Source: Erysipelotrichaceae bacterium (GTDB taxonomy: Bacteria > Bacillota_I > Bacilli_A > RFN20 > CAG-826). From it: a DNA stretch of 64,000 bases. Within the stretch, counting starts at the first letter, position 1. Every line of letters starts with the position of its first letter. Positions 3,668-5,664 of the stretch are shown here, in pieces. The stretch is from NCBI GenBank assembly GCA_015058945.1, contig SVBF01000007.1, forward strand, positions 2,230 through 66,229, written 5' to 3'. The notes beneath the pieces were generated by a model. It did not search any database. It was given only the letters and a program-made list of their open reading frames with translations, and was not told where the DNA came from. The translations under genes were made by a program, and so were the position numbers.

Positions 3668-5008
3668 TCAGTCCGCAAGAGTTCCCATCGGGTCCCACGG
3701 ATTCAAATGCACGGGCACCTTCTTCGCGGCCGAAATCTGTTCCTTGGTGAGGTATTTGTTCTTGACGACGGCCTGGTAGACGAAGCGGTCGAACCAGGAG
3801 TCGGACATGACGTAGTAGCCGCTGCTTCCGCTATCGGTACCCCAGGAGTTCTCGATTTTCCATTTGAGGGGTTTGCCGTCCTCGAGGTCGACGCCGACGA
3901 TGCACATCGCGTGGTTCATCGCGCTGTGACGGTAATCGAGCATCGCGCCCTTGTCGAAATGGAGGCCGAAGCCTAAGGCGGATTCGTAATCGAAGGCCTT
4001 GTCGTCCCAAGCGAAGGAGGCGCGGTCGCGATAGAAGGAGACGTCGCTGCCGAACCAGACGATCTCGCCGTCGAGCAACTGGCGGATGATCGCGTCCTTC
4101 ATGTCCTTCATCTCCACGTTGAGGTGGTTGATCGATTTGCCCTCGATGACGTTGCCGAGGTAATCGATGGTGAAGTTGCGCATGAAGGGTTTATCTTCGG
4201 TGGGCGAATTGATGAGGGATTGATATTCCTCGATCTCCTTGCCGACGAATTTGTCGAAGAAGGACTTCGGGGTGAAGGTTTCCTTATGGAATTTTTCCTT
4301 GGAGTCGTTCCATTCGAACTCGAACTTCTTCGGGGGCACCCCAAAGGCGTCGAAGAAGAGGCGATAGACGTTTTCCATGGCCTTGTCCTTGACCGCGCGA
4401 ATCTCGCTCTTCTTGCCCTTGACGGAGAGTTCGTGGGCCTGATGGGCGAAGTCGCGGATGATCGCGGCGACGAGGAAATTGGTCTCACGGGTATGCTCGG
4501 AATGGTAGGTCTCGGGGAAGCAGTCCTTCGGCATCAAGCCGTATTTGCGGACGAGGTTGACGAACATGTCCCATTGGCCGCCGTCGCTGACGGGGTCTTG
4601 GAGGATGAATTGGAAGACGCGCTCGTTGGGGGAATACTGGGCCAAGGAAATCACGGATTCCAACGCGAAGTTCGCCTTCTCGATCTTGTCGTAGAGGGAG
4701 ATGTAATTCTGGCTGAGTTCGAATTGGCCGGTGGTGCCGAGTTTCTTCGCCACGATTTCGCGGAGGACGTTAAGCCCGGCGAAGATCCAGCAACGGCCGG
4801 AATTCTTCTGGTTGGTGACGGGCATGGTCTTGATCTCGTTGGAGAAGACCATCGAGGTCTCGGCGATCGCCTGCGACTCATGGACGATGTCGGTGAGGGT
4901 TTCGCGGCAGAGGGCGTGGCGGACGACGGTGTTGCGTTGGTCTTCCAGATAATCGGAAAGAATTTTGTTTTGGCTCACTAAATCCAAAGAGCCTTCGATG
5001 TTGGGCAT
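3668..5008 (-). CDS. pepC: aminopeptidase C (bleomycin-hydrolase family, C1-like cysteine peptidase)
   Basis: Active-site region QKNSGRCWIFAGLN, length ~445 aa, RBS GGAGGAAACACC before the ATG. Confidence 0.85.
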   Translation of the reverse strand: MPNIEGSLDLVSQNKILSDYLEDQRNTVVRHALCRETLTDIVHESQAIAETSMVFSNEIKTMPVTNQKNSGRCWIFAGLNVLREIVAKKLGTTGQFELSQNYISLYDKIEKANFALESVISLAQYSPNERVFQFILQDPVSDGGQWDMFVNLVRKYGLMPKDCFPETYHSEHTRETNFLVAAIIRDFAHQAHELSVKGKKSEIRAVKDKAMENVYRLFFDAFGVPPKKFEFEWNDSKEKFHKETFTPKSFFDKFVGKEIEEYQSLINSPTEDKPFMRNFTIDYLGNVIEGKSINHLNVEMKDMKDAIIRQLLDGEIVWFGSDVSFYRDRASFAWDDKAFDYESALGFGLHFDKGAMLDYRHSAMNHAMCIVGVDLEDGKPLKWKIENSWGTDSGSSGYYVMSDSWFDRFVYQAVVKNKYLTKEQISAAKKVPVHLNPWDPMGTLAD

Positions 5009-5238: not shown

Positions 5239-5631
5239 ATCGAGTAGAGCGGCGAGGTTTTAATCTCGCCCGTCCTCTCACACCACCGTACGTGCGGTTT
5301 TCCGCATACGGCGGTTCCAATCAACATAACGCCTCCCTACGCTTGAGGTAGTACGTGAGGGGGTTCGTCAGTCCGCCGAGTTCCAGCAGGGAGTCCGACA
5401 CGAATGGGGCGAACGTCCCGCTTTTTGCGATTTTAGCGTATCGGTTGCCTTGGTTTGCTAAGCCCTTCGCGTTGCGCCTCCTATCGGGTTCCTGTTCGTA
5501 GGGTCTCGGTTTCGCCTCCCCCTTCTTTCCCGCCTCGGTCGCCCGAGTAAGGTTGGGGTTGGCTATGCTGGGTTTCTTTACAAGGCCACCCAACGAGGAC
5601 TTTCACCTCAGGCCTGTGATGTGCCCGTCAC
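5239..5631 (-). mobile_element. ORF-less group II intron-like ribozyme (class C-like); domain V and VI recognisable
   Basis: Minus-strand 5283-5314 is CCGCCGUAUGCGG-AAAA-CCGCACGUACGGUGG, a canonical domain V with a 9-bp lower helix, AC bulge and tetraloop. A domain-VI-like helix follows, with a bulged A 7 nt before a terminal ..CGAU. The 5' region reads GUGACGGG...GAGGUGAAAGUCC. The element lies immediately 3' of a terminator hairpin and has no IEP ORF. Both boundaries are approximate. Confidence 0.6.
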
Positions 5632-5664
5632 ATAGAAAAGACCGCCAAGGGGCGCTTGACGGTC
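5632..5664 (-). terminator. intrinsic terminator of the acidic lipoprotein gene
   Basis: Minus strand GACCGUCAAGCGCCCCUUGGCGGUC hairpin followed by UUUUCU. Confidence 0.5.

Follow-up and report, generated by a model that had tools for sequence, protein, structure and literature searches.

A 393 nt group IIC intron element behind a terminator hairpin in an Erysipelotrichaceae genome, very probably an internally deleted remnant

In group II introns, domain I provides both the scaffold for folding of the ribozyme and the sites that bind the exons; parts of the catalytic core come from J2/3 and domain III. The class IIC intron of Oceanobacillus iheyensis, which has been crystallized, is very similar to the element described here in its domain V with flanks (GAACCGCCGUAU…ACGUACGGUGGUGUG) and in its 5′ motif GGUGARAGUCC; the crystallized construct keeps all of domains I–III, whereas our element does not. 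Introns of class IIC insert directly downstream of an intrinsic terminator motif, and most copies of group II introns in bacteria are described as truncated (PMC4028801). Bacterial introns without an ORF were considered to be rare and usually coexist with related copies that encode the intron-encoded protein (IEP; PMC4424553). ORF-less IIC introns were later characterized as hydrolytic endonucleolytic ribozymes (HYERs; summarized in PMC11754743), which are described as possessing a whole ribozyme of 0.4–0.6 kb with its target-recognition site and as being multi-copy. Automated ‘ORF-less’ calls based on domains V–VI and a nearby D1–D4 match are known to mislabel partial introns (PMC8919778).

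Here, we describe an element from an Erysipelotrichaceae bacterium (GCA_015058945.1, contig SVBF01000007.1, positions 2,230–66,229 of the forward strand); this whole stretch of 64,000 nt is referred to as the window. The element is read on the minus strand (5239–5631, 393 nt), has a G+C content of 58% and is present in one copy, with no further copy detected in the 64 kb window by blastn and Rfam. It shares with HYERs an origin from IIC introns, the absence of an IEP and a small size; it differs from them in having no target-recognition loop, in lacking ∼320 nt of ribozyme and in occurring at one locus. We conclude that the element is very probably dead and was left behind when an ordinary mobile intron of group IIC, ∼1.89 kb in length, lost its internal part. 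We classify it as a decayed copy of a IIC intron: it has the same IIC domains V–VI, GUGAY 5′ end and terminator and T-run site as truncated IIC copies, with the same loss of the IEP and of part of the RNA. Many known fragments are cut at one end, whereas the window element keeps both termini and has lost its middle in a microhomology-flanked deletion, and it therefore mimics a small ORF-less intron. The coordinates of all features are summarized in Table 1.

Table 1. Features of the element and its surroundings, and ORF-less relatives. Positions refer to the window, except those that follow the handle of a relative, which refer to that locus.
Feature	Position	Strand	Details
Lipoprotein-like ORF, 280 aa	5676–6518	−	Upstream of the element
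Terminator-like hairpin	5640–5664	−	10 bp stem with 6 GC pairs and a T-rich tail; belongs to the upstream lipoprotein-like gene; insertion target motif
End of the 5′ exon (8 nt) with T-tract	5632–5639	−	TTTTCTAT; former IBS1 position
Intron 5′ end	5631	−	GUGACGGG (GUGAC), continuing GTGACGGG
Intron nt 1–159, 5′ part of domain I	5473–5631	−	96% identical to L107 intron 1–160; same in L127; ends with the junction heptamer
Junction heptamer GAGGCGC	5474–5480	−	Single remaining copy of a 7 nt direct repeat; from comparison with L107 and L217
RT/maturase gene remnant, last 52 codons and stop	5321–5479	−	46/52 identical to L107 IEP residues 403–454; tblastn match 5479–5324
Spurious 90-aa ORF	5321–5593	−	Arises because domain I RNA is in frame with the IEP tail; called as a gene by metagenome pipelines
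Domain V	5283–5314	−	CCGCCGUAUGCGG/AAAA/CCGCACGUACGGUGG; intact, 4 bp upper helix, AAAA loop; RF00029; identical in relatives
Domain VI	5239–5282	−	Bulged A at 5245, 7 nt from the 3′ end; RF00029 alignment
Intron 3′ end	5239	−	CUACUCGAU (…CUCGAU); shared with L217, L218 and L127, with unrelated 3′ exons beyond
pepC-like gene (Peptidase_C1_2)	3668–5008	−	Downstream of the element
Predicted ligated-exon junction, if spliced		−	UUUUCUAU/UUAGCC; 3′ exon starts UUAGCC
Predicted empty-site sequence			GGCGGTCTTTTCTAT-TTAGCCTATTG; 5′ and 3′ flanks joined without the element
ORF-less relatives L127 and L130	L127, 4504–5078; L130, 3–260	+ (L127)	Two MAGs; different 3′ exons
ORF-less relatives L156, L201 and L159	L156, 3–491; L201 and L159, 3′ parts		One MAG; different 3′ exons

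The whole 64 kb was searched with Rfam at the gathering threshold and the region of the element was additionally scanned locally with permissive settings. The sole group II match at the gathering threshold covers the full RF00029 model (Intron_gpII, domains V–VI) at 5239–5316 (−), with 49.4 bits (gathering score, 40) and E = 1e-6 for the 64 kb. This score bears out the near-textbook domain V and the domain VI with a bulged A that had been proposed in the initial annotation, and the group II-like 5′ end and terminal AU noted there recur as the ends of related copies. Both boundaries of the element match exactly those of relatives at unrelated genomic sites, and this comparison of copies at different sites allows them to be regarded as secure. 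The 5′ end, GUGAC, departs from the canonical GUGYG at positions 4–5 (GUGAY is found in 8/8 family members) and the 3′ AU fits AY. The intron begins at the base right after the T-tract listed in Table 1, and six relatives also start directly behind a hairpin and a T-run, so that the insertion right behind the terminator of the upstream lipoprotein gene, which had been put forward as a hallmark of IIC introns, is upheld. These sequence features were all found where the initial annotation had placed them, far beyond chance. The architecture of domains V–VI (lower helix, 2 nt bulge, catalytic triad and bulged A) and the insertion behind a terminator both place the element in class IIC.

Relatives were collected in a single scan of a genome collection with the domain V variant of the element (upper helix GCGG/CCGC with an AAAA loop), which returned 107 loci (L107–L213). 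Many of these loci belong to MAGs from ruminants or the gut that carry the label Bacilli, Erysipelotrichaceae, Enterosoma or Mollicutes, and Verrucomicrobiota and Kiritimatiellia contribute many others. Domain V with the pattern GCGG-NNNN-CCGC and otherwise identical flanks was seen in Bacilli-type gut MAGs, Verrucomicrobiota, Kiritimatiellia, Betaproteobacteria, Acidobacteriota and Bacteroidota. Many copies are present per MAG, often less than ∼100 nt from contig ends; introns with this domain V are thus multi-copy and assembly-breaking. A scan of metagenome contigs with the intron 5′ end gave three loci, two of which are full-length introns. A broad IIC domain V pattern gave at least 100 matches on viral contigs; it matched domains V–VI only, which made it of no use for the D1–D4 comparison, and the GCGG/CCGC variant with the AAAA loop was absent among the ∼100 matches listed.

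The full-length relatives L217, L218, L107 and L138 are 1887 nt long and have a complete domain I with EBS1, domains II–III and an RT/maturase ORF of 454–466 aa, all of which the window element lacks. The ORFs of L107 and L138 contain RVT_1 (E = 2e-40) and GIIM (E = 2e-14). Over the retained segments, the element is 89–97% identical to these four copies, with an identical domain V and with the same boundaries and target type. A blastn alignment of the element with L107 is split into two blocks, intron nt 1–159 (96%) and nt 152–393 (94%; this block reaches nt 384 in the search of all the loci), with ∼1.49 kb between them, and the same split match is obtained with the more distant L138, L146, L204 and L169.

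The position of the break can be assigned exactly. In the full-length copies L107 and L217 the heptamer GAGGCGC is located at intron positions 153 and 1646, and the window reads CCCGATAG-GAGGCGC-AACGCGAAGGG, i.e. the left flank of repeat 1, one repeat and the right flank of repeat 2. The deletion comprises 1493 nt, in agreement with the arithmetic (1886 − 1493 = 393), and blastn did not detect the deleted segment at any other place in the 64 kb. An insertion of 1.49 kb in the relatives, as an IS or a twintron, was considered and rejected: the segment holds the canonical rest of domains I–III and the RT/maturase, and because it contains these canonical intron parts the difference is owing to a deletion in the window. 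The deletion removed the 3′ half of domain I with its EBS1 loop, domains II–III together with J2/3, the 5′ portion of domain IV and codons 1–402 of the IEP gene. What is kept amounts to 159 nt of domain I, the last 52 codons of the IEP gene and both domain V and domain VI. The coding remnant accounts for ∼156 of the 393 nt of the element (40%). The initial annotation had reported no reverse transcriptase in the 64 kb, and this holds in that tblastn finds only the 52-codon C-terminal remnant inside the element and no other IEP or RT piece in the window. The 90-aa ORF that spans the junction has no Pfam match and its homology is limited to residues 39–90, the IEP C-terminus; judged by its sequence, this hypothetical protein is an annotation artefact.

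The distribution of the junction was taken from an exact look-up of the junction-spanning 90-aa product. It is found in eight contigs (99.7–100% identity), which stem from JGI and Logan assemblies made independently from different samples, in all of which it occupies the same lipoprotein–pepC locus and no other site. This single-locus pattern in eight assemblies gives no sign of mobilization. The junction pattern had 0 matches in the metagenome-contig collection, which is weak evidence since the known JGI carriers (L001 and L003–L006) are also absent from that collection. Synteny with the window in other species was found for none of the 107 domain V loci.

We infer the following course of events. 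A full-length copy, with its ribozyme and with an RT/maturase ORF in domain IV, most likely retrohomed behind the terminator hairpin of the lipoprotein-like gene. A single 1493 nt deletion between the two heptamers followed, either by DNA slippage or recombination or through a template jump by the RT during the original cDNA synthesis. The remnant then probably persisted as neutral intergenic DNA, since it lies in a spacer downstream of a terminator and interrupts no gene. No damage is seen in domains V and VI or in the segment of domain I that is retained (94–98% identical to active-looking relatives), which fits a recent deletion; residual constraint is also compatible with their state.

Alternatively, the remnant could have been co-opted as a cis-acting RNA or DNA element, for instance one that protects the lipoprotein mRNA as a stable structured 3′ end, insulates against read-through or forms part of a leader or promoter region of pepC. 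The element lies between two genes on the same strand, its domains V and VI are very stable hairpins and all eight assemblies of the locus agree at the identity given above; in addition, outward-facing promoters are known in IIC-attC introns (PMC3001079). However, the terminator precedes the element, which most transcripts should therefore fail to reach, and the sole promoter-like site on the minus strand (5061–5033) is outside the element, between it and pepC. The identity across assemblies represents one population sampled and not conservation across species, with no syntenic locus recovered, and the IEP-remnant segment is as well preserved as domains V–VI, which favours recency over selection. 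We therefore consider co-option to be quite improbable. The placement of the element in the 5′ region of pepC by the initial annotation is correct as to position, but 230 nt separate the end of the element from the start of pepC, with the promoter-like site in between. The predicted 280-aa product of the upstream gene has a signal peptide with an LVSCGS lipobox, is very acidic and contains a run of ∼8 Glu residues; no Pfam match is recorded for it in the precomputed gene tables.

The consequences of the deletion for the RNA were assessed with seven intact copies, of which the 5′ 470–480 nt were aligned; base pairs were obtained with RNAalifold. In these copies EBS1 is a hairpin loop, GCRAAAR, which pairs and covaries with the 5′ exon of each copy: TTTTCGT with GCGAAAA in L127 and L217, TTTTTGT with GCAAAAA in L107, L218, L204 and L169, and CCTTTTGT with GCAAAAGG in L138. 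The covariation involves exon position −3 (C/G versus T/A) and, in L138, positions −7 and −8 (C/G). The loop begins ∼30 nt inside the deleted segment, and the EBS1/IBS1 pairing that had been suggested as a check of the initial annotation failed on this account, with TTTTCTAT also a misfit to the family EBS1. The 5′ exon in the window ends in CTAT, compared with TTTT(C/T)GT or CCTGT in 7/7 relatives, and would pair poorly with GCRAAAR at the two positions adjoining the splice site. Either EBS1 was different before its loss or the exon changed once splicing had become irrelevant.

The D1–D3 consensus contains 113 pairs, 44 of them with compensatory changes. The window retains both strands for 32 pairs, only the 5′ strand for 25 (including the covarying closing stem of domain I) and neither strand for 56, so that 81/113 pairs cannot form. 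RF02001 (group-II-D1D4-3) matches the element at 5387–5548 (−) with 29.3 bits, just short of its gathering score (32), and the posterior probabilities are poor over the 3′ half of this alignment; intact relatives score 84–99 bits. The permissive scan of the element detected neither RF01998, which gives 40–44 bits in L107, L110, L127 and L138, nor any other D1–D4 model besides RF02001. Covariance-model support for domains I–IV, the lack of which had been named as grounds for abandoning the initial reading, is thus largely lacking. The well-aligned 5′ half of the RF02001 match corresponds to intron nt 1–159. As proof of an intact domain I the match was rejected, as its 3′ half aligns to the IEP-coding sequence for FVSDSLLE, which is also coding in the intact copies, where the real partner strands lie upstream. 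From what is known of group II structure and function, an RNA with one third of domain I and domains V–VI is not expected to adopt an active ribozyme fold, to splice or to reverse-splice; we infer that the element is catalytically inactive, given that neither EBS1 nor J2/3 nor domain III is present and domain I is mostly lost.

These losses weigh directly on the reading of the initial annotation, in which the element is a compact, complete ORF-less IIC ribozyme core, comparable to HYERs, that self-splices, cleaves targets or is mobilized in trans. Its IIC origin and its want of a functional IEP stand; a splicing-competent or trans-mobilized core does not, given the missing 3′ half of domain I and domains II and III. 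The intact domains V–VI, the correct 5′ end, the terminator context and the lack of an IEP in the 64 kb all speak for a compact core, and ORF-less IIC introns are a real active class (PMC11754743), with true ORF-less relatives of the element at multiple sites. However, the equation of ∼390 nt with a ribozyme core without an IEP proved to be mistaken: the complete ORF-less core of the family, as in L127, measures 572–575 nt, and the element falls ∼320 nt short of it. Furthermore, 156 nt of what is present are left over from IEP coding sequence and the element occupies one locus only. Besides the deleted EBS1, the absent RF01998, the sub-threshold RF02001 and the 81 pairs that cannot form, the parts of a IIC intron that are missing include a complete domain I, domains II–III and an IEP in domain IV; compared with ORF-less introns and HYERs, the element likewise has no IEP ORF, but the complete ribozyme with a target-recognition site (EBS1/EBS3) is absent. 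A compact core is hence hardly credible.

Equally hard to credit is that the mini-element, consisting of the 5′ third of domain I, domain V and domain VI, is retained for a function, whether as a stand-alone RNA with domains V and VI that complements, or interferes with, full-length introns of the family in trans, or through IEP-aided excision using ribozyme parts of other copies in the host genome. Intact copies or an IEP elsewhere in the host genome would not restore the missing RNA domains. That the junction is an assembly artefact, with a full-length intron collapsed or joined chimerically, has a negligible probability: multi-copy introns do confuse metagenome assemblies and many family loci end at contig ends, but the junction and its flanks recur in the eight independent contigs from different samples, and a 7 nt repeat is far too short for assembler collapse.

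The remnant reading carries a caution for annotation. Perfect ends, textbook domains V–VI, a sub-threshold D1–D4 match and no RT together mimic a minimal ORF-less ribozyme, and pipelines that rely on such features would mislabel the element; the full-length relatives alone reveal that 40% of it is leftover coding sequence and that the core of the ribozyme is missing. The exact microhomology junction makes it a clean example of group II intron decay in bacterial genomes. Two other loci show different forms of damage. L135 (5179–5503, −), from the goat-rumen MAG RGIG3500, is a 5′-truncated fragment with intron nt 1563–1887 only. L107 (5180–5200, −) diverges after CCTCGCCGCT; its last 9 nt, which comprise the branch A and the 3′ strand of domain VI, are missing and its RF00029 score falls to 37.8 bits, so that its 3′ end is itself damaged although the copy encodes an IEP. 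With L135 truncated and L107 without its last 9 nt, decay products are common in this intron family.

A more useful by-product of the comparison is a set of complete ORF-less relatives, which occupy several sites in MAGs from the ruminant gut (RUG13633, RUG14861 and RGIG4442). Like the window element, these introns are members of the family that came about through an internal deletion; in their case the ORF alone was lost and the whole ribozyme is kept, with a length of 572–575 nt. Two independent junctions are represented, each at 2–3 different sites. Since the same junctions adjoin different 3′ exons, ORF-less copies with an intact ribozyme appear to have spread, and the form found in the window apparently did not. 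L127 scores 84 bits with RF02001, 40 bits with RF01998 and 51 bits with RF00029. On these sequence grounds, L127/L130 and L156/L201/L159 resemble mobile IIC introns of the ORF-less kind and can be regarded as candidate HYER-type ribozymes.
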